Virus record (IMG/VR): IMGVR_UViG_3300034069_000411
Source: a virus
Length of the DNA: 64,000 bases
Strand: one strand, 5' to 3'
Both the position numbers and the translations under genes were made by a program. How positions within the stretch are numbered: position 1 is the stretch's first letter; each line of letters begins with the position of its first letter. Under the pieces are notes generated by a model. It had not been told where the DNA came from and did not search any database. It was given only the letters and a program-made list of their open reading frames with translations. Positions 947-63,997 of the stretch are shown here, piece by piece.

Positions 947-996
947 GCGGCGGTGGCAGCGATACCGCTTGCTGCCGCCGTGGCAGGGGAGCAACA
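947..996 (+). promoter_or_regulatory. promoter/operator cassette, copy 1
   Basis: Upstream arm GCGGCGGTGGCAG, then CTTGCTG-N-GGGGAGCAACA with the embedded palindrome CTGCCGCCGTGGCAG (972-986). Lies 50 nt before ATG 1046. Confidence 0.45.
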
Positions 997-2992: not shown

Positions 2993-3039
2993 GCCGCCGT
3001 GGCAGTTTCCCTTGCTGCCACGGCGGCAGGGGAGCAACA
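2993..3039 (+). promoter_or_regulatory. promoter/operator cassette, copy 2
   Basis: GCCGCCGTGGCAG-tttccctt-GCTGCCACGGCGGC (13-bp inverted repeat), CTTGCTG...GGGGAGCAACA, and palindrome CTGCCACGGCGGCAG (3015-3029). Confidence 0.45.
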
Positions 3040-3659: not shown

Positions 3660-4088
3660 ATGCCACACGACTCCAAAGACCTTCTCGAATCGACGACCGC
3701 AATAGCTGTCGCGATGGCTGCGGCCGGGACGCTGTCAAACGTCCGCGAGACGCCGGCACAGTCGATTGCCGCGATCTACGCGGCCCTCGCCGCCACCGCC
3801 GGGCCGGGCGCGCCCGAGATGGCCGAAGGCGATCACCGGACCTACGAGCCCGCCGTCACCAGCCGCAAGTCGCTGGCCTCCGACGAGCACATAATATCGA
3901 TGATCGATGGCAAGCCGTACAAGACCCTGCGCCGCCATCTCGCCGGGCACGGCCTCACCCCCGAGACCTACCGCGAGCGGTACGGCTTGCGCCCCGATTA
4001 CCCGATGGTCGCCAAGGCCTATTCGGAAAGCCGGCGCGCGATGGCGAAGAAAATCGGGCTGGGCAGGAAGCCGGCGTCGAACAGCTAA
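3660..4088 (+). CDS. MucR/Ros-family transcriptional regulator lacking the two zinc-binding Cys (142 aa)
   Basis: HIISMIDGKPYKTLRRHLAGHGLTPETYRERYGLRPDYPMVAKAY aligns gap-free with the Ros/MucR core. Same length as Ros (142 aa). Confidence 0.85.
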   Translation: MPHDSKDLLESTTAIAVAMAAAGTLSNVRETPAQSIAAIYAALAATAGPGAPEMAEGDHRTYEPAVTSRKSLASDEHIISMIDGKPYKTLRRHLAGHGLTPETYRERYGLRPDYPMVAKAYSESRRAMAKKIGLGRKPASNS

Positions 4089-6488: not shown

Positions 6489-6814
6489 TATCGTGGCTCC
6501 GTGGTTGAGGACTGGATGATGTCGGCGCGGCTCTCACCGGTAGCCGTGGCGACTTTGTCGGTGATCGGCTGCGTCCCCATCGCCTGCTTCGCGACATCCT
6601 TGACCGTCACCCCGGCCGTGACGCGGCTCGCGACCTCGGCCCCGAGGATAGCGGTCAGCTGGCGCACAAAGCCCCAGAACCCGACGGCGTCGTCAGGAAT
6701 GCGGCGGGTGATCGCGCGGCTCGCGACGTTGACGACGACGACCCAGAAGACGAGCGTGCTTGGCGCGATGCCTAGCGCCGCGGCGATCTGGGGGATCATT
6801 GTGAAGGGGTCCAT
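6488..6814 (-). CDS. membrane protein, i-spanin or holin-like (108 aa)
   Basis: N-terminal TM segment APSTLVFWVVVVNVA. Directly after the endolysin. Confidence 0.5.
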   Translation of the reverse strand: MDPFTMIPQIAAALGIAPSTLVFWVVVVNVASRAITRRIPDDAVGFWGFVRQLTAILGAEVASRVTAGVTVKDVAKQAMGTQPITDKVATATGESRADIIQSSTTEPR

Positions 6815-24301: not shown

Positions 24302-24340
24302 GGGATGCTCCTTTCGATCTTGGGGCCCTGATACACCAAC

Positions 24341-24370
24341 GGCCCGCCCCCCGGATATAGGGGACGGGCC
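24341..24370 (-). terminator. conserved bulged-A hairpin (family copy 1)
   Basis: GGCCCGCCCC-loop-GGGGACGGGCC, 22 nt after stop 24392. The minus-strand read is followed by GTTGGTG. Confidence 0.45.
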
Positions 24371-30495: not shown

Positions 30496-32087
30496 CGACG
30501 TGCCCTCCGCTTCGCCATTTTCGTTCGTGACCGTAGGACCTTCGTGATCCGCCGGGCGTCAGCGTTGCCCTCGACACCGTCCGCGGGATCCGGCGCGGTC
30601 CCGCTGTTGCGCCCCGGGTTCAGCGACAGATCCATTTCGTCGACCCGCTCGGGCGGGCGTGATAGGCCCCAGATATCGTAGATCTCGCCGACGGCGGGAT
30701 CGTCAGGCATGACGGGCGCGCCGGCCTGCGCCAGTTTCGCCAGACCGTCCAGCAGCTGCTCGACGTCGCGGTCGCTGATCTCGTTCACGCCCATCTCGGG
30801 GCGCAGTTCCTCCGGCCACCCGTTCAGATCCGCGATCGGGGTCAGCACATCGCGGTCGATCACTTCGACCAGGTCGAGCAGGGTCGACGTGATCGTCAGG
30901 TAAAACGTGCCTACCTTTGACCGCGCCAGCGCGAGAGAGCCCGACCCGTCGGCACCCAGCAGCAGATGCTCGACGCCGAGGACGCGGGCCAACTCCTGAT
31001 TCGTGCGGGTGATCGCGGCGGCGATGTCGGCGAAACTGCTGCTGTCGCCGGTGAGCAGTTCCAGCCCCCATTTCGGCACCGCGGACGGCGTCGTCGCTTT
31101 GTCGGTGCCCTGACCGATGAACGGATCCGACGGGAGCATGACGCCGGTTTTCTTGTTGCGGACGTGCTTGTCGATGAAGTCGCGCAGGGGCCGTAGCATC
31201 GCGGCGCGACGGCCCTCGGCCTTGGCGCGCTCCGGGGATCCTACCCCGCCGGCCGCCTCTACCTCGGCCTTCAATTCGCCGAGCGGCGCGCGCGCGATCG
31301 GGATCCCGCGCAGATCCGTGGTGAAGCCGATGTTCTCAAGCTCGAGCAGCTGACGTAGCCGTTCCGCGCTTTCGGCGAGGTGGCGGTAAAGCCCCATGCC
31401 CTCGGGGCTGTCGGTCAGGGTGTCGTCGACCGCGTAGACGATCTTCGCGCGGGGCAGGGGGACCTCGTTGAGGCCGGGCACCCGCTGCACCACCCCGAGG
31501 ACGGTGCCCGAGGCATCGCGCAGCCAGCGCGCGATCGAGCGTTGCGGCCGATGCTCGATGTCCTTGAGGCCGATCGACCCGTCCTCATTCCGCTTGGCGG
31601 TCCACTCCATGATGGAGAAGCCCTGCAGGCGGTACGCCGCGATCTTCTTGATGACCGACGACCAAGGCGTCGTCATGTCGAACAGCATGTCATAGGCGGC
31701 GTCGGCGTAGCCCTGGGCGATCGGGGCCTCGTTGTCGTTCAGGCCCTCGGGCGGGTTCACCGTCCAGACCGCGTTCGCGATGAGGTTGAGAAAGACGCGG
31801 ACGCCGGCGGAAACGATCGATACATCGCGGACCAGCCGGTCGTATTCGTCGAACCGGGCTGATCCGACCAGCGAGACGCGCGGATCGTTGTAGCTACCGG
31901 AGTAGCCCGACAGATCCGCCGCGGAATCGAGGCTCGACCCCAGCGTGTTGGTCGACCCGCCGTCGGCCTTCTGGATCTCGTCGCCGGTGCTGATCACGGC
32001 GTCGACCATGGGATCGCTGATGGCGTCGGATCGCGCGTCACCGCCGAACCAACTCCCCATGCGCTCGAAAATGCTGTCCTCGGCCAA
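30492..32087 (-). CDS. portal protein (531 aa)
   Basis: Size and position (first structural gene after the terminase, followed by MuF-like). TTG start with GGGAG SD. An ATG alternative exists at 32060. Confidence 0.65.
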   Translation of the reverse strand: MAEDSIFERMGSWFGGDARSDAISDPMVDAVISTGDEIQKADGGSTNTLGSSLDSAADLSGYSGSYNDPRVSLVGSARFDEYDRLVRDVSIVSAGVRVFLNLIANAVWTVNPPEGLNDNEAPIAQGYADAAYDMLFDMTTPWSSVIKKIAAYRLQGFSIMEWTAKRNEDGSIGLKDIEHRPQRSIARWLRDASGTVLGVVQRVPGLNEVPLPRAKIVYAVDDTLTDSPEGMGLYRHLAESAERLRQLLELENIGFTTDLRGIPIARAPLGELKAEVEAAGGVGSPERAKAEGRRAAMLRPLRDFIDKHVRNKKTGVMLPSDPFIGQGTDKATTPSAVPKWGLELLTGDSSSFADIAAAITRTNQELARVLGVEHLLLGADGSGSLALARSKVGTFYLTITSTLLDLVEVIDRDVLTPIADLNGWPEELRPEMGVNEISDRDVEQLLDGLAKLAQAGAPVMPDDPAVGEIYDIWGLSRPPERVDEMDLSLNPGRNSGTAPDPADGVEGNADARRITKVLRSRTKMAKRRARR

Positions 32088-32228
32088 CGCCCGGCTCCCT
32101 GTGCTGCTCGGGGTGGTCTTATCGCAGGGGCGGGGCGGGGGATAGTCGGCGGCGTGGGCCTCGAACCCTACGGGGCCGCATCAGCCCTATCACCTGCCCG
32201 TCGTGCGCTTCGGGACGCCGCCTCGATG

Positions 32229-32302
32229 TTGCGGGGACAGGATTCGAACCTGTGACCTCCAGCGCATGAAGCTGGCGAGCTACCGGGCTGCTCCACCCCA
32301 CG
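32229..32302 (-). tRNA. tRNA-Met (anticodon CAT), initiator-like acceptor/D arm with non-initiator anticodon arm
   Basis: Hand-folded cloverleaf. C1 opposite A72, A11:U24, anticodon stem CCAGC/GCTGG, loop TTCATGC, T arm ACAGG-TTCGAAT-CCTGT. No encoded CCA. Confidence 0.85.
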
Positions 32303-32319
32303 GGGGCTGGATGGCAAAC

Positions 32320-32347
32320 GGCCCGCCCTCGGTCAAGAGGACGGGCC
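32320..32347 (-). terminator. conserved bulged-A hairpin (family copy 2)
   Basis: GGCCCGCCCTC-ggtcaa-GAGGACGGGCC. The minus-strand read is followed by GTTTGCC. Lies 17 nt upstream of the tRNA 5' end. Confidence 0.45.
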
Positions 32348-32642
32348 GTCAGTATCGCACCGCCAATTCGGGCGACGGTGCCGTGTGAGCCGGTCGTTAC
32401 CCCGGCGATGTGTTTCCCGTTGGTCCCGAGGGACTTTCAGAGCGGAGCGGCCACCTACCTGCCTAAAGCCCCCGGCTGATCTTTATCGGCCCCGGGGGAG
32501 CCTAGCCCGTCTCCGGAATATCCGGGCTGTCACACGGCGGTCCCTGCTACCGAGGGGCCGACCAACCTACCCCTGCCGGCGCGTCCGCCGCGTGATCCCG
32601 GTGTTCCTACCGGGGCCGCCTCTGGCGAGGCGTCGGACCCGG
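32320..32642 (-). ncRNA. candidate structured ncRNA or long structured tRNA leader (~300 nt)
   Basis: Bounded by a promoter-like motif and a hairpin. Many local helices and a 9-bp long-range pairing. No credible ORF. Confidence 0.35.
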
Positions 32643-32648
32643 GAACGG

Positions 32649-32677
32649 CGTTGCTCCCCACCGTCCCGATTCGCAAG
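32649..32677 (-). promoter_or_regulatory. promoter-like motif CTTGCGA-N-GGGGAGCAACG (minus-strand copy)
   Basis: Same CTTGC-N13-GGGGAGCAAC spacing as 968-996 and 3011-3039. Confidence 0.4.
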
Positions 32678-32690
32678 CTGAAACGTAAAC

Positions 32691-32719
32691 GGCCCGCCCC
32701 CTGTGCAGAGGGACGGGCC
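32691..32719 (-). terminator. conserved bulged-A hairpin (family copy 3)
   Basis: GGCCCGCCCCC-loop-GGGACGGGCC. The minus-strand read is followed by GTTTACGTTT. Downstream of gene 32798..33055. Confidence 0.45.
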
Positions 32720-32797
32720 GGCCAGCCGGGGGCTCAAGATACCCCGACCTACTTCCACCGCGTGCGGGCCTAACACCCGGGCGCGATGGCTATCTGG

Positions 32798-33055
32798 TTA
32801 TCGCTTGCGATCCGACGAGTAGCGCGGGACGCCGGCTTCGTGCCGGAGGCCGTTCTGGATGCCGCGGGGAAGTGCGTTGCCGTCGATCCGGATGGTCAGG
32901 CCGAACGTGTCGGTCGCGAGGCGCGTCGGTTCCGGGCTGAACAGGGCGGCGCAGTCGCGCATGAACGCCCCGGCGCGTGCGATCGTGGATGCGAAGGCGG
33001 CGTAGGCCGAGAGCGCGGGGGCGATGATCAGGGCGAATAGCAGGCTGCGACGCAT
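32798..33055 (-). CDS. small secreted protein (85 aa)
   Basis: AGGAGA SD 5 nt before the ATG. Signal peptide MRRSLLFALIIAPALSAYA. Lies between the terminase and portal genes. Confidence 0.55.
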   Translation of the reverse strand: MRRSLLFALIIAPALSAYAAFASTIARAGAFMRDCAALFSPEPTRLATDTFGLTIRIDGNALPRGIQNGLRHEAGVPRYSSDRKR

Positions 33056-33116
33056 GACGGTCTCCTAACAGGGTGGCGGGTGCCGGAGGCGAACCTGCGT
33101 CAGACCGGGCTCGGGG

Positions 33117-34781
33117 TCAAGCCGCGCCCCACGGGTCGTCGTCATAGCCGGCCTCGGCCATCGCATCGGCCAGCACCTGCTCATCGCTGCCCGGCTCGAC
33201 GACCTCGGGCCCGGCGTTGACCGTCACCTCGGCCATGTCGATGATCTCGCCATAGGCGCGGCTGCTCGCGTCGATCTGATCCTTGAAGGCACCCGCGGGG
33301 AACGTCCGCATTTCCTCGACATAGTCGTGGTTCCACGCACCCTTCACCAGCCGCACCATCCCGAGGCCCACCTGTGAGGCGAACGGCTCGGCGCGACCGA
33401 TCTTGTCGAGGCGGCCCTCGGTCGTGATCCGGAGATTGAACTTGCCGAGGTGTTCGGCGAGGTCGTGCTTCTGAACTTTGCCGGCCGAGGCGGGATCTTG
33501 CGGCAGCGACTGCAGGGTGCGCGGGTCGATATCGAAATCGGCCTGGGCGACCGCCTTGATGTTGGTGCGCAGCTCATCCGGGCCCCAGCGGTCACGGCGG
33601 ACATCGGCGATGTAGATCAGGCCGTTGACCCGCTTCATTTTGACGCCGGCCGTGAAGGCTGACCGGCGGTCCTTCGAGGCGGCAAGATCCCAGCCGCGGA
33701 CCCATGACCCGCCGCTCGGCGCGAAGTCGACGTATCCGATCTGGCCGACCTTGAACATGCCGCCCTCGCGCGGGGCCGGGCGCTGCAGGTACTGACCGTT
33801 GTACGCATACTCGCCGATCTTTTTCAGCTGCTCGATCGCGGCCGGGGGCACGCGGACCGGGTCCATCGGCTCGCCCATGTAAGAGCGCGGGTCGGTCCAG
33901 TCGGTCTTGCCGCCCGCCCCGTCGTCGACCTTGAGCGGCGTGGTGCAGCGCCGGTCCGGTTCGAACTCCATCGGGATCATCAGGTGGACGAACCCGAACT
34001 CGCGCGCGAGCAGCACGCCGGTCAGATCCTTCTCATGCAGGCGCTGCATGACGATGACGATCGCGGACGTCTCCCAGTCGTTCGTTCGGTTCAGGCCGCC
34101 CTCGATGAAGGCCTGCACCGCGCCGTCGCGCTGTACCTCTGATTCCGCGCCCTTGAGGTTGTGCGGATCGTCGACGATCAGGCGGTCGCCGCGCTTGCCG
34201 GTCACGCCGTAGAAGCTGACGCCGAGGCGGGTGCCGGTGTCGTGATTGCCGAACGACAGCTTGCCCGCCGTCTTCATCCTGACCTCGGGCCACAGCGACT
34301 GGAACCATTCGGACCGGACCACGTCGAGCGTCTTGCCGGTGTCGCGCTTCACGTTGCCCAGATCGAACGACGTCGTGACATAACGGAGGTGGCGTCGGCC
34401 GAACGGGCCCCATTCCCATGCCTGCCACAGGACGGTGACGATCGTCGATTTCGACGAGCCCGGGGGGACGTTGATGATCAGGCGGGGGTGCAACTGGCCG
34501 CGGCTGATCGCCTCCAGATGATCGCACATCGCCTGCATGTGCCAGTTCCACCGCAGGGTAGTGCCCGGCTCGATGATCTTCCACGCGTACCGGACGAACC
34601 CGGCGAAGGTCTGGCATTCGGCGCGGACCCGGTCAGCGTCGCGCTCGACCTCGTCCATCATCGCTTCGTGCTGTCGCCGCGCTATCTCGCGCTTGTAGGC
34701 CGCAACCGACAGCGGCAGTTCGTTGCGGGGCGTCCAGCCGGTCGCGACCGGCGAGTCGTCAAGGCTCGCCAGTGATGTCAT
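33117..34781 (-). CDS. terL: terminase large subunit (554 aa)
   Basis: Walker A VPPGSSKST, Walker B RLIVDDPH, C-terminal nuclease-type region. Synteny with TerS and the portal. Confidence 0.9.
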   Translation of the reverse strand: MTSLASLDDSPVATGWTPRNELPLSVAAYKREIARRQHEAMMDEVERDADRVRAECQTFAGFVRYAWKIIEPGTTLRWNWHMQAMCDHLEAISRGQLHPRLIINVPPGSSKSTIVTVLWQAWEWGPFGRRHLRYVTTSFDLGNVKRDTGKTLDVVRSEWFQSLWPEVRMKTAGKLSFGNHDTGTRLGVSFYGVTGKRGDRLIVDDPHNLKGAESEVQRDGAVQAFIEGGLNRTNDWETSAIVIVMQRLHEKDLTGVLLAREFGFVHLMIPMEFEPDRRCTTPLKVDDGAGGKTDWTDPRSYMGEPMDPVRVPPAAIEQLKKIGEYAYNGQYLQRPAPREGGMFKVGQIGYVDFAPSGGSWVRGWDLAASKDRRSAFTAGVKMKRVNGLIYIADVRRDRWGPDELRTNIKAVAQADFDIDPRTLQSLPQDPASAGKVQKHDLAEHLGKFNLRITTEGRLDKIGRAEPFASQVGLGMVRLVKGAWNHDYVEEMRTFPAGAFKDQIDASSRAYGEIIDMAEVTVNAGPEVVEPGSDEQVLADAMAEAGYDDDPWGAA

Positions 34782-61107: not shown

Positions 61108-61754
61108 ACGACACCATTAACGCCGCTGAGGCGGCGAAGCATATCTACGGCTCCACCATCGGCCTCGGCGACGGCAGCTATTTCGACTATCTCGACCCGG
61201 CCTCGACCGGGATGACGATGGAGGATTACGCCTACGCTCTGGCCTATACCTGCCGGTTCCGGGGCCAGACCTGGTCGAACGGCCGGCGGGTGTTCTACGG
61301 CGTCGGCCAGCACTGCGTCATCGGTACCGAGCGGATGCTTGTCGACGGGCACAGCGTGCGCGATGCGCTGGCCTTCCTGATGCATGAGAGCGACGAGGTG
61401 CCGTGGGGTGACTTCGCGAGCCCGGCGAAGCCGCTGATGCCTGCCGAGTTCCGCGCCCTGATCAAGTCGAACGGCAAGGCGATCGACCTGCACTTCGGCA
61501 TCGTCACGCCCGACCCTGACCTGATCAAGCGGTATGACATCCGCCTGTTCGCTACGGAGAAACGGGATCTGATGCCCCAGTTCAGCCGCCAGACTTGGAC
61601 GAAGGATCAGATCAGCACCGCCGCTGCCGAGGGGTACGAGCCGTTCGATTCCGTCATTACGCCGGCCGCGCACCCGGACGAGGCCGCGGAGCGGTTCCTG
61701 ATGCTCTATTCCGTCCTCACCGATCGCCTCGCACGCGAAGGCGCAGCCGCATGA
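61101..61754 (+). CDS. HD-superfamily hydrolase-like protein (217 aa)
   Basis: EDYAYALAYTCRFRG, VGQHCV, FLMHESDEVPWGD resemble phage HD/YfbR-like proteins, with HE in place of HD. Confidence 0.5.
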   Translation: MLNDTINAAEAAKHIYGSTIGLGDGSYFDYLDPASTGMTMEDYAYALAYTCRFRGQTWSNGRRVFYGVGQHCVIGTERMLVDGHSVRDALAFLMHESDEVPWGDFASPAKPLMPAEFRALIKSNGKAIDLHFGIVTPDPDLIKRYDIRLFATEKRDLMPQFSRQTWTKDQISTAAAEGYEPFDSVITPAAHPDEAAERFLMLYSVLTDRLAREGAAA

Positions 61755-63997
61755 GGCTCGCTCCTGTCACCAAGACCTACCGCGTCGGCCACCTGTTCTG
61801 CGGCGTCGGATCCGGCGCGGCCGGCTTCAACGATGCGAACCCGAGGGTCAACGGCGTCGCCGCGCGGTTCGTGTGCGCCGGGGGCGTCGACTCCGATCGC
61901 GGGGCTATCGACAACTTCGATCTGATCACCGGGTCGAAGGGCACCGTCATGGATCTGTTCGACCGCGAGCAGTTCATCTCCTTCCACGGTCACGAACCCC
62001 CGGCCGGTTGGCGGGAGGCCAACCCCGCCGACATCCGTCGGGCGCACGGCGACCTTCCGCTCGACGTGATGTTCCTGTCGGCCCCGTGCAAAGGCTTCTC
62101 GGGGCTGCTGTCAGCCAAGGCGTCGGGGGCTGACAAATATCAGGCGCTTAACGCCCTGACAGTGCGCGGCGTCTGGCTGACGCTTGAGGCGTACAAGGAT
62201 GACCCGATCAAGATCATCCTGTTTGAGAATGTCCCGCGGATCCTGACGCGCGGCCGGGCGCTGCTCGACAAGATCCAAGCTCTGCTCCGGGCCTATGGGT
62301 ATGTCTTTGCAGAGACGACGCATAACTGCGGCGAGATCGGCAACCTCGCCCAGAGCCGCAACCGGATGCTGATGGTTGCGCGGCACTCCGCGTCGGTGCC
62401 CCCGTTCCTGTACCAACCCGCAAAGTCCGCCCTGCGCGGCGTCGGTGAGGTCATCGGCCTGCTACCGCTCCCGGGTGACCCGATGGCGGGGGGCATGCAC
62501 CGCGTCCCGCAGCTGCAGTGGAAGACGTGGGTGCGCCTCGCGTTCGTCCCAGCCGGTAAGGATTGGCGCGCGCTCAATGATCTGGCTGTCGAGGACGGCC
62601 ACCTGCGCGACTACGGGATCGTGCCCGAGGTGAAGATGCGCGACAACCAGCTGGGCGTGCTGGACTGGGCTGACACCGCGCCCGTCCTGACCGGTCAGCG
62701 TTCGCCGGCACAGGGCCGTTTCAGCGTCGCGGATCCTCGAATCGAGAGCGTCCACAACGAGACGCTCGGCGTTCGCCCGTGGGAGGCCGCGGCGCGCGTC
62801 GTCGCCGGGGCGAGCCGGCCGGCCAACGGCGCGCATAGCGTCGCGGATCCCCGACCCCAGCAGGCCAACCAGAGTTTCGCCCAGTACGGGGTCAAACCAT
62901 GGGAGGAGACCGCGGCAACGGTCACCGGACAGGCGGCACCTGGAGGCGGGCCTAACTCGATCGCTGACCCGCGCCTCGGCCGCGTTGCCCATTCGAACGT
63001 CTACCGGATCGCTCGATTCGATCAGCCGTCGTCGGCGGTGACATCCAGCCGCGACACCGCCGTCGCGGATCCGCGCGCGACGACAGGATTCGAAGGGGCG
63101 GGCAAGTACAGGGTCACCGCCTACGGCGAGGCCGCCGGTACCGTCATCGGCGGGTCGACCACGGGACAGGGGGCGTTCGCGCTCGCTGACCCCCGGCCGA
63201 CACACGGGCCGAACGCCCACGCGACTAAGCACAAGGTGGTCGGGTACGATGACACGGCCCCGGTGGTCACCGGCAGCGACCGCGTCGGGTCCGGCGCGCT
63301 GTCAGTTGCTGACCCGCGCCCCGGGTACACCGACGCGCACCACAACGTCATGAAGGTCACGCCGTTTGACGAGCCTGCGGGCACCGTGACCAGCGGGGGC
63401 GGCCCCAGCAACGGGGCGATCAGCGTCGCCGACCCGCGGCCTGTCGGGCTCAATGCCGACGCCCGCGAGGGCTACGCGACGCAGGGGCACTACGGAGTGC
63501 TTGGCTGGGATGAGACGAGCAAGGCGGTGCCGGGGTACGCAAAGTACGATCGCGGCAACTGGTCGGTCGCTGACCCCCGGGATCTTGAAATGGAGGCCGC
63601 ACCCGCGCTGCCCGCCGCCAACACCCGCCTCGTCGCCCGCATCATCGCGCGCGACGGCACATGGCACCGGCCCTTCACGACGCTTGAGCTGGCGGCGCTC
63701 CAGTCGATCTTCGATCCCGAGGAGGTGTTCGCGGTCGACGAGGCAACCGGTCAGTGGACCCGGCGGGCCGAGTTCGATCTGATCGGGGGCAGTGATCAGA
63801 CGAAGCGCGAGTGGATCGGCAACGCGGTGCCGCGCGCCGCCGCCCGGGGCATGGCGGAAACGATCGGCGAGACGCTGCTTCTGGCGGAACAAGGCGAGAC
63901 GTTCGTGTTGTCGAGCCGGGCGATCTGGACGAAGCCTCTAGCCCTCGCGCTGGCCGTCGACCCGCGCCAGTCGGTGTGCGGCGAGGTGATCCTGTGA
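61751..63997 (+). CDS. DNA (cytosine-5) methyltransferase with eight tandem TRD-like repeats (748 aa)
   Basis: Start refined to the ATGA overlap. Motifs FCGVGSG, PCKGFS, ENV, QSRNR, GNAVP in order. Repeat array lies between motifs VIII and IX. Confidence 0.85.
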   Translation: MRLAPVTKTYRVGHLFCGVGSGAAGFNDANPRVNGVAARFVCAGGVDSDRGAIDNFDLITGSKGTVMDLFDREQFISFHGHEPPAGWREANPADIRRAHGDLPLDVMFLSAPCKGFSGLLSAKASGADKYQALNALTVRGVWLTLEAYKDDPIKIILFENVPRILTRGRALLDKIQALLRAYGYVFAETTHNCGEIGNLAQSRNRMLMVARHSASVPPFLYQPAKSALRGVGEVIGLLPLPGDPMAGGMHRVPQLQWKTWVRLAFVPAGKDWRALNDLAVEDGHLRDYGIVPEVKMRDNQLGVLDWADTAPVLTGQRSPAQGRFSVADPRIESVHNETLGVRPWEAAARVVAGASRPANGAHSVADPRPQQANQSFAQYGVKPWEETAATVTGQAAPGGGPNSIADPRLGRVAHSNVYRIARFDQPSSAVTSSRDTAVADPRATTGFEGAGKYRVTAYGEAAGTVIGGSTTGQGAFALADPRPTHGPNAHATKHKVVGYDDTAPVVTGSDRVGSGALSVADPRPGYTDAHHNVMKVTPFDEPAGTVTSGGGPSNGAISVADPRPVGLNADAREGYATQGHYGVLGWDETSKAVPGYAKYDRGNWSVADPRDLEMEAAPALPAANTRLVARIIARDGTWHRPFTTLELAALQSIFDPEEVFAVDEATGQWTRRAEFDLIGGSDQTKREWIGNAVPRAAARGMAETIGETLLLAEQGETFVLSSRAIWTKPLALALAVDPRQSVCGEVIL
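62647..63580 (+). repeat. 8 x 34-47-aa coding tandem repeat ending in S-V-A-D-P-R
   Basis: ADPR codons recur from 62729 to 63569. Units share ..GV.xW(D/E)..A.TVTG......G..SVADPR. Confidence 0.8.

Follow-up and report, generated by a model that had tools for sequence, protein, structure and literature searches.

A repeat-bounded non-coding cassette upstream of tRNA-Met in the terminase-portal slot of a siphophage, and the accessory RNA it may encode

Does the ~300 nt that lies between a promoter-like motif and a tRNA gene in the terL-portal interval of a tailed phage give an RNA of its own, or is it the leader of that tRNA or a by-product of recombination? The window (the whole stretch of 64,000 nt that was analysed, also contained in the Logan assembly of SRR23972082) comes from a high-G+C tailed phage whose terL is 79% DNA-identical to that of the Erythrobacter phages vB_EliS_R6L and ZS04. 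The genome is that of a siphophage related to these two, and the slot that carries the cassette, from terminase to portal, is hypervariable. Read along the minus strand, the elements are terL (34781-33117), a small ORF of 85 aa with a secreted look (33055-32798), hairpin 1, the promoter-like motif, the ~300 nt in question, hairpin 2, tRNA-Met (anticodon CAT; 32228-32302, identified by ARAGORN and by the Rfam tRNA model with 57 bits) and the portal gene (32087-30492).

The slot and its non-coding content

Using portal- and terL-guided searches, we gathered ~100 related loci (designated here by L numbers), in which the length of the terL-portal slot varies between about 0.1 and about 4.2 kb; in L122 (terL 75% identical) the sequence stops right past its hairpin. 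Related terminases encoded on Logan and IMG contigs number roughly 1,800. The slot spans ~3.7-4.4 kb in L045, L047 and L051, and its contents differ from relative to relative: some have a 919-aa ORF, others additional tRNAs (Thr, Gly, Gln, Trp), small ORFs or 250-400 nt of non-coding DNA, the last of these behind a similar promoter-like motif. Hypervariability is also seen at L004 (1162-3921) and L046 (4216-4517).

In the window, codon-position GC displays no periodicity over 32800-32300 (spread of at most 0.18, versus 0.30-0.48 in terL, the small ORF and the portal gene), and the ORF list has no ATG-initiated ORF in the cassette. The first-pass annotation had seen no convincing ORF in the terL-portal stretch apart from a small secreted protein and had taken the overlapping ORFs for artefacts; both views are upheld, the first by the non-coding profile of 32800-32300 and the second because codon-position GC is without periodicity. 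Although both strands have ORFs of 48-98 aa that overlap the region, a small protein gene or a decayed pseudogene is hardly credible: the neighbouring genes are strongly periodic where the cassette is not, and the overlapping ORFs are Arg/Pro/Gly-rich, start within the promoter or the hairpin and have no ribosome-binding sites. The coding reading was therefore rejected.

Known RNA families were likewise not recovered. ARAGORN found neither a tRNA nor a tmRNA inside 32320-32677, its only call being the neighbouring tRNA-Met, and among the Rfam 15 models at gathering thresholds tRNA alone passed in the window. When the threshold was relaxed to E ≤ 10 over 32000-33200, the best model other than tRNA was Termite-flg, with 22 bits against a cut-off of 40; in L004, L042 and R6L, tRNAs alone passed under both settings. 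The earlier statement that the RNA matches neither RNase P, tmRNA and 6S nor the riboswitches is thus confirmed down to E ≤ 10, where no family but tRNA reaches its cut-off. Membership in GOLLD, ROOL, an alphaproteobacterial sRNA or any other Rfam 15 family was rejected, as no covariance model other than that of tRNA came near its gathering score. An unsystematic look for a group II intron or a retron revealed no adjoining reverse transcriptase gene and no intron-like sequence, and the cassette contains no tandem or ToxI-like repeats.

Boundaries of the cassette and its distribution among relatives

The cassette opens with a promoter-like motif (CTTGCGAATCG-N-GGGGAGCAAC, 32650-32677 on the minus strand) whose boxes are conserved and whose spacer is variable. 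The pattern CTTGC-N13-GGGGAGCAAC has exactly three copies in the window (968-995 and 3011-3038 on the plus strand, 32677-32650 on the minus strand), where shuffled sequences lead one to expect no copy at all, and allowing three mismatches adds a single weak site. The claim that this motif shares its spacing with two other copies was accordingly correct, and these copies (at 968 and 3011) lie ~50 nt upstream of small ORFs having ribosome-binding sites. Both boxes are identical in the window, L121 and L042, while in the alignment the spacer carries five changes in L121 and two in L042; in L004 the first box is unchanged and GCAAT replaces GCAAC. With two boxes kept while the spacer varies, the cassette start behaves like a promoter at the sequence level. 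A related CTTGCCAATC...GGCAAC also follows terL in L046, ahead of ~270 nt of non-coding DNA, a hairpin and a small ORF.

A 13-bp element, GCCGCCGTGGCAG, was observed at 947-959 (an imperfect copy), 974-986, 2993-3005 and 3015-3027 of the window, in direct or inverted orientation, that is, upstream of the other two promoter-like copies and within their spacers; the copy before the cassette has none. The element is operator-like in appearance, and a gene for a Ros/MucR-family regulator lies nearby (3660-4088).

Two hairpins and a direct repeat frame the cassette. Hairpin 1 (32690-32720, minus strand), found by the terminator scan, consists of 12 bp followed by GUUUACGUUUC; it is terminator-like and may close the terL/small-ORF transcript. 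Its 3′ half forms part of the upstream copy of a 35-nt direct repeat, which the first-pass annotation had missed and which a repeat search placed at 32677-32711 with its partner at 32306-32340 (77% identity between copies, 371 nt from start to start). Hairpin 2 (stem 32347-32320 which, with its GUUUGCC trailer, spans 32313-32347 on the minus strand; pair probability 1.00) is where the cassette RNA is predicted to have its 3′ end or to be processed. It had been described as a conserved bulged-A hairpin located 17 nt before the tRNA 5′ end: the hairpin exists, and the distance is right given tRNA-Met at 32302-32228, but there is no bulged A, the stem being a perfect 11 bp with one G-U pair (GGCCCGUCCUC / GAGGGCGGGCC). 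Its loop, CUUGACC, is common to L003, L004 and L042.

G+C-rich hairpins of this type (GGCCCGUCCCC...GGGGGCGGGCC, then GUUG or GUUU) recur in the window at 32320-32347, 32690-32720 and 24340-24369 (minus strand). Since copies stand at 32720-32690 and 24369-24340, hairpin 2 belongs to a generic hairpin of this phage and is not specific to the cassette; and since the 24369-24340 copy lies between late genes, such a hairpin would be read through, or would stabilise or process mRNA instead of acting as a full terminator. Hairpin 2 may consequently not terminate, as it has a GUUU tail only and its type stands between late genes that need read-through.

The L003 and L041 phages (portal 74-75% identical) proved informative in this respect. 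In both, the small ORF is followed by one hairpin, the orthologue of hairpin 2, and then by tRNA-Met, with a single copy of the repeat; the DNA between the two copies is missing, and the extra DNA of the window amounts to 371 bases placed exactly between the repeat copies. The cassette is therefore a real, discrete, non-coding and repeat-bounded indel. Because L003 and L041 do without it, it does not count among the conserved core elements of the terminase-portal spacer; on the same ground we rejected an essential cis site (pac, cos or origin) and an indispensable packaging RNA of the phi29 pRNA kind. Moreover, L003 and L041 leave no space for a tRNA promoter after the hairpin, which implies that there the hairpin is read through.

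These observations bear on an alternative in which the motif is a promoter for tRNA-Met, and possibly for the portal/head genes, independent of the terminase operon, the 300 nt being a functionless leader that is processed away and hairpin 2 a weak terminator or an mRNA-stabilising/processing element. We consider this unlikely, though it is the main rival reading. The need to transcribe through the hairpin in L003 and L041, the same hairpin between late genes, the proximity of hairpin 2 to the tRNA together with its poor U-tract, and the weak structural signal of the body (see below) all point in its direction, as does the Erythrobacter phage R6L group, where CTTGCCA stands in front of tRNA-Met; indeed, in R6L, ZS04, L045, L047 and L051 a related promoter-like motif directly precedes tRNA-Met without a long leader. 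The same relatives also count against it, since the tRNA manages without any such unit in L003 and L041 and without a long leader in the R6L group. In addition, the units of L121 and L004 end in their own terminator, ahead of extra sequence or ORFs that precede the tRNA. Given these terminators, and given that L054 has a unit containing the type A motif (see below) but no tRNA close by, such units are not simply tRNA leaders.

Sequence conservation argues more directly against a functionless leader. L121 (terL 92% identical, small ORF 74%) carries the cassette, and over 4.27 kb it diverges from the window by 14.1% (21-97 mismatches per 300-nt window). Over 32644-32345, however, only 3 mismatches occur (two in the loop of the 5′ module and one in the 3′ module, as defined below), whereas the 78 nt just upstream of the body contain 16, of which 5 fall in the inter-box spacer. 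A leader under no constraint should diverge by 14-20%, like its flanks, and 1% is observed; the body is conserved with a tightness comparable to that of the neighbouring tRNA. In L042 (portal at least 90% identical), the promoter boxes are kept and the 67 nt from 32647 to 32581 are identical, so that conservation begins at the same boundary as in L121, the start of the predicted transcribed part. From a breakpoint at 32580, L042 continues with a different and shorter sequence (the type A motif described below) before it rejoins the window at hairpin 2 and the tRNA. Among the relatives, L121 has a near-identical body, and L003 and L041, two of the closest, have no cassette. Overall, related phages conserve and exchange this piece of DNA as a discrete unit.

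The same data may also be read as mosaic junk, i.e., a by-product of recombination between repeated hairpins and promoter boxes that two phages came to share recently and that has no function apart from its promoter and terminator. The size and contents of the slot vary widely (tRNAs, ORFs, non-coding pieces), direct repeats flank the cassette, L042 has its mosaic breakpoint at 32580, and the 99% identity with L121 could come from recent recombination rather than from selection in so mosaic a region. Nevertheless, we regard this reading as rather improbable, given that the high-identity tract of L121 extends from the predicted start to the terminator with no spill into the flanks, that its 5′ boundary is common to two independent comparisons, and that the minus-strand transcript folds better than each of 100 shuffles.

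The cassette has few homologues, a point in favour of recombination junk, and its sequence is known solely from metagenomes (Logan SRR23972082 and JGI 3300055142). Blastn of the unit against phage records returned tRNA matches only, and against plasmids no match. Exact-pattern scans of viral contigs (GRTAARGRTCAG-N19-AGGTGG, CGTTTCRG-CTTGCGAATCG and a 24-mer from the 5′ module) added nothing beyond L004's own contig and chance matches in coding DNA; portal-guided searches of genome contigs gave no unit, and none of the 8 relatives found by a protein-guided scan of metagenome contigs has one. Within the gathered loci, L004 resembles the window only in hairpin 1, the first promoter box and a GCAAT box; after the boxes it has a non-coding stretch of its own (250 nt, z = -3.1) and a terminator of its own, and two small ORFs then precede the tRNA. 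A likeness between the units of the window and L004 (both contain GRTAARGRTCAG...AGGTGG and hairpins that resemble each other) was withdrawn, as the local-alignment z did not exceed 1.

Predicted fold and a sibling motif

The body comprises two modules on the minus strand. The 5′ module (32581-32647, ~67 nt) contains the hairpin CGCCUC-GCCA-GAGGCG and the segment UCACGCGGCGG. The 3′ module (32349-32580, ~230 nt) is specific to the window and L121, has no significant similarity to any other unit, and holds the 9-bp complementarity that had been noticed by eye. Compared to shuffled sequences, the folding z is -2.1 for 32680-32303 and -3.76 for the predicted transcript with its terminator, which lies below all 100 shuffles; the plus strand reaches -2.13, and this better folding of the minus strand was counted in favour of a minus-strand RNA. 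Without the terminator the body drops to -1.82, and the last 197 nt (3′) alone give -0.54. The body is therefore only slightly above shuffles, and the argument from its richness in helices is weak.

Regarding individual helices, the Boltzmann ensemble of the predicted transcript assigns a pairing probability of 0.87 to CGCCUC/GAGGCG, and a probability of 0.99 to an 11-bp helix between 32595-32585 and 32540-32530. All helices listed in the first-pass annotation are present as complementary segments at the right coordinates, although most are out-competed in this ensemble (e.g., 0.00 for CCCCCGG/CCGGGGG, 0.01 for CCGGA/UCCGG and 0.12 for CCCGGU/ACCGGG). The long-range pairing of 32538-32530 with 32388-32380 also has a probability of 0.00, because its 5′ strand is engaged in the 11-bp helix, and the fold first proposed is not supported in this prediction. 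As modelled, the helices picked by eye appear close to chance expectation at 69% G+C, and the predicted fold is unstable, the minimum free energy structure having a frequency of ~0 in the ensemble. Covariation in relatives had been proposed as a check; the window version is known from 2 lineages, the window and L121, which differ at 3 sites (2 predicted unpaired, 1 predicted paired) and show no covariation.

Competing pairings of this kind could also belong to a leader that acts in cis, by attenuation or by processive antitermination (as in riboswitches, lambda PR'/tR' or HK022 put), and that would decide whether polymerase continues beyond hairpin 2, and beyond later hairpins, to reach the tRNA and the portal/head genes. 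The order of promoter, structured leader, terminator-like hairpin and genes recurs in the window, L004, L046 and L054; CCGCCGUGUGA can pair with either 32595-32585 or 32388-32380 in a mutually exclusive manner; GGAGACGGGCU within the unit can pair, by eye, with the 5′ arm of hairpin 2; and the 67-nt promoter-proximal module is the best-shared part. We find such a regulatory leader very improbable all the same. Alternative pairings are frequent by chance at this G+C content, Rfam at E ≤ 10 yields no known riboswitch, aptamer or leader family, the downstream cargo is heterogeneous, and L003 and L041 have the same downstream genes without the leader.

The sequence that takes the place of the 3′ module in L042 belongs to a sibling motif, here called type A, found at 7 loci: L042 (3618-3737), L001 (KY006853, R6L; 3879-4003, at about 61,673-61,797 of KY006853), L002 (ZS04; 6611-6735), L045 (1358-1480), L047 (1399-1521), L051 (697-821) and L054 (1019-1137). 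It is ~110 nt long with four helices, namely a closing helix and three hairpin arms, one of them with a stem interrupted into two parts. Among 5 distinct sequences, 12 of the 30 pairs are changed on both sides and 98.7% of the cells are paired, a compensatory level that 0 of 500 shuffles reach, with at most 2 such pairs in slid controls. As no Rfam family matches it, type A looks like an undescribed structured RNA motif, judging from the pattern of substitutions.

Among relatives of the window's phage, type A is usually found on the upstream side of tRNA-Met. In the L042 cassette it comes between the 67-nt module and hairpin 2/tRNA-Met; in the R6L group it stands between the terL stop and the promoter-like motif; and in L054 it is part of a non-coding unit of ~400 nt with a terminator at its end and without a tRNA in the vicinity. 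It shares with the window 3′ module its position in the cassette, and both were counted as closed by a long-range helix. Unlike the window 3′ module, type A has covariation support. Its covariance model R1, run with cmsearch on the window and 92 loci, scored the members at 102-143 bits and gave no match in the window at E ≤ 10; with neither a covariance-model match nor significant sequence similarity, membership of the window 3′ module in type A was rejected. Note that type A occurs in two cultured phages (R6L and ZS04) besides five metagenomic relatives, and is thus directly testable in the laboratory.

A candidate accessory RNA and its counterparts in other phages

Altogether, we favour, with about even confidence, the reading in which the cassette yields an autonomous accessory non-coding RNA of ~330 nt, as a non-coding element of the 'moron' type. 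Three observations suggest that the transcribed sequence itself matters: two independent comparisons place a conservation boundary at the predicted start of transcription, the body is conserved like the tRNA, and a sibling module in the same position covaries. In the proposed mechanism, a sigma-70-like promoter (CTTGCGA-N17-CAACGC), whose boxes are common to two other phage promoters, would start transcription near 32645 on the minus strand, and the ~330-nt transcript would run to hairpin 2. Its 3′ end would arise either by termination at hairpin 2 or through RNase P, which would cut 17 nt beyond at the tRNA-Met 5′ end, so that tRNA-Met is either co-transcribed with the cassette or insulated from it. 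The product would be a stable RNA guarded by its 3′ stem-loop and of modular build, with the 67-nt promoter-proximal module joined to an exchangeable 3′ module. Such an RNA would most likely act in trans, as a useful yet dispensable accessory of the phage.

A bolder version of this accessory-RNA reading, which we hold to be doubtful, treats the slot as a docking site for interchangeable structured RNAs, with the 330-nt RNA of the window as a functional trans-acting accessory under near-total sequence constraint. A Sphingomonadales-type siphophage family may then carry three kinds of RNA (window type, type A and L004 type) behind a family-conserved promoter, and these may be swapped by recombination at promoter boxes and terminator hairpins. 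By analogy, they may be small counterparts of the tRNA-linked GOLLD and ROOL, serving, for example, translation takeover or anti-defence. If the RNA is made and functional, it would represent a new small family among the poorly understood non-coding RNAs that travel with tRNAs in phages; if the cassette is merely a leader or a recombination scar, it would be an ordinary feature of a mosaic phage slot. In either case, relatives with the cassette (L121), with a hybrid (L042) and with none (L003, L041) provide a natural experiment.

The term 'moron', due to Hendrix and colleagues, denotes an autonomous promoter-gene-terminator insertion between genes that are adjacent in related phages. The cassette is indeed inserted between elements that are adjacent in L003 and L041, and it has a promoter-like motif and a terminator-like hairpin with a short U-tract, whose activity is predicted from the letters of the DNA. 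Its distribution is sporadic, which makes it dispensable. It differs from morons in its cargo, which is non-coding instead of a protein gene.

Stable RNAs beside tRNAs are familiar from T4, whose 'species 1 and 2' (rnaC, rnaD) are co-transcribed and processed with the T4 tRNA cluster; to our knowledge, their function has still not been established. The cassette RNA would resemble them as a structured and stable RNA next to a tRNA, plausibly freed by tRNA-processing enzymes, but it has no sequence relationship to them, and the cassette has a promoter-like motif to itself and precedes just one tRNA.

GOLLD and ROOL are large, ornate RNAs of phages and prophages, of unknown function, that often occur near tRNA islands, and the GOLLD env-38 RNA lies downstream of a Met-tRNA (PMC12286853, PMC5737381). 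The cassette is similarly phage-encoded, non-coding, located beside tRNA-Met, possibly co-transcribed with it, and modular with one half more conserved. However, it measures ~330 nt compared to ~580 to more than 800 nt, shows no Rfam match at E ≤ 10, and in its window version has neither a conserved tertiary-structure signature nor covariation support.

In Stx phages, the short transcript of the lambda-type PR'-tR' region yields the sRNA StxS (PMC7547250). The arrangement is comparable in that a promoter is soon followed by a terminator upstream of late genes, with a possible short trans-acting non-coding RNA; the cassette differs by its absence from close relatives and by its place amid morphogenesis genes rather than at the start of the late operon, and an unsystematic look revealed neither a Q-like antiterminator nor a qut site. 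The cassette is a member of none of GOLLD, ROOL, the T4 stable RNAs and StxS, and would form a new small family.

As for the tRNA neighbourhood, tRNA-Met has initiator-like features, with C1 mismatched to A72 and a D-arm that resembles the one in E. coli tRNA-fMet; its anticodon stem is without the three G-C pairs, and its anticodon loop (UUCAUGC) is unusual. Just downstream, a tRNA-like remnant (32148-32222, minus strand) displays a perfect 7-bp acceptor-like helix (GGCGGCG/CGCCGCC) and a GGGUUCGAGGCCC segment, at the place where L042 has an intact tRNA-Trp. Since neither ARAGORN nor the Rfam tRNA model calls it, this remnant is probably a decayed tRNA gene.
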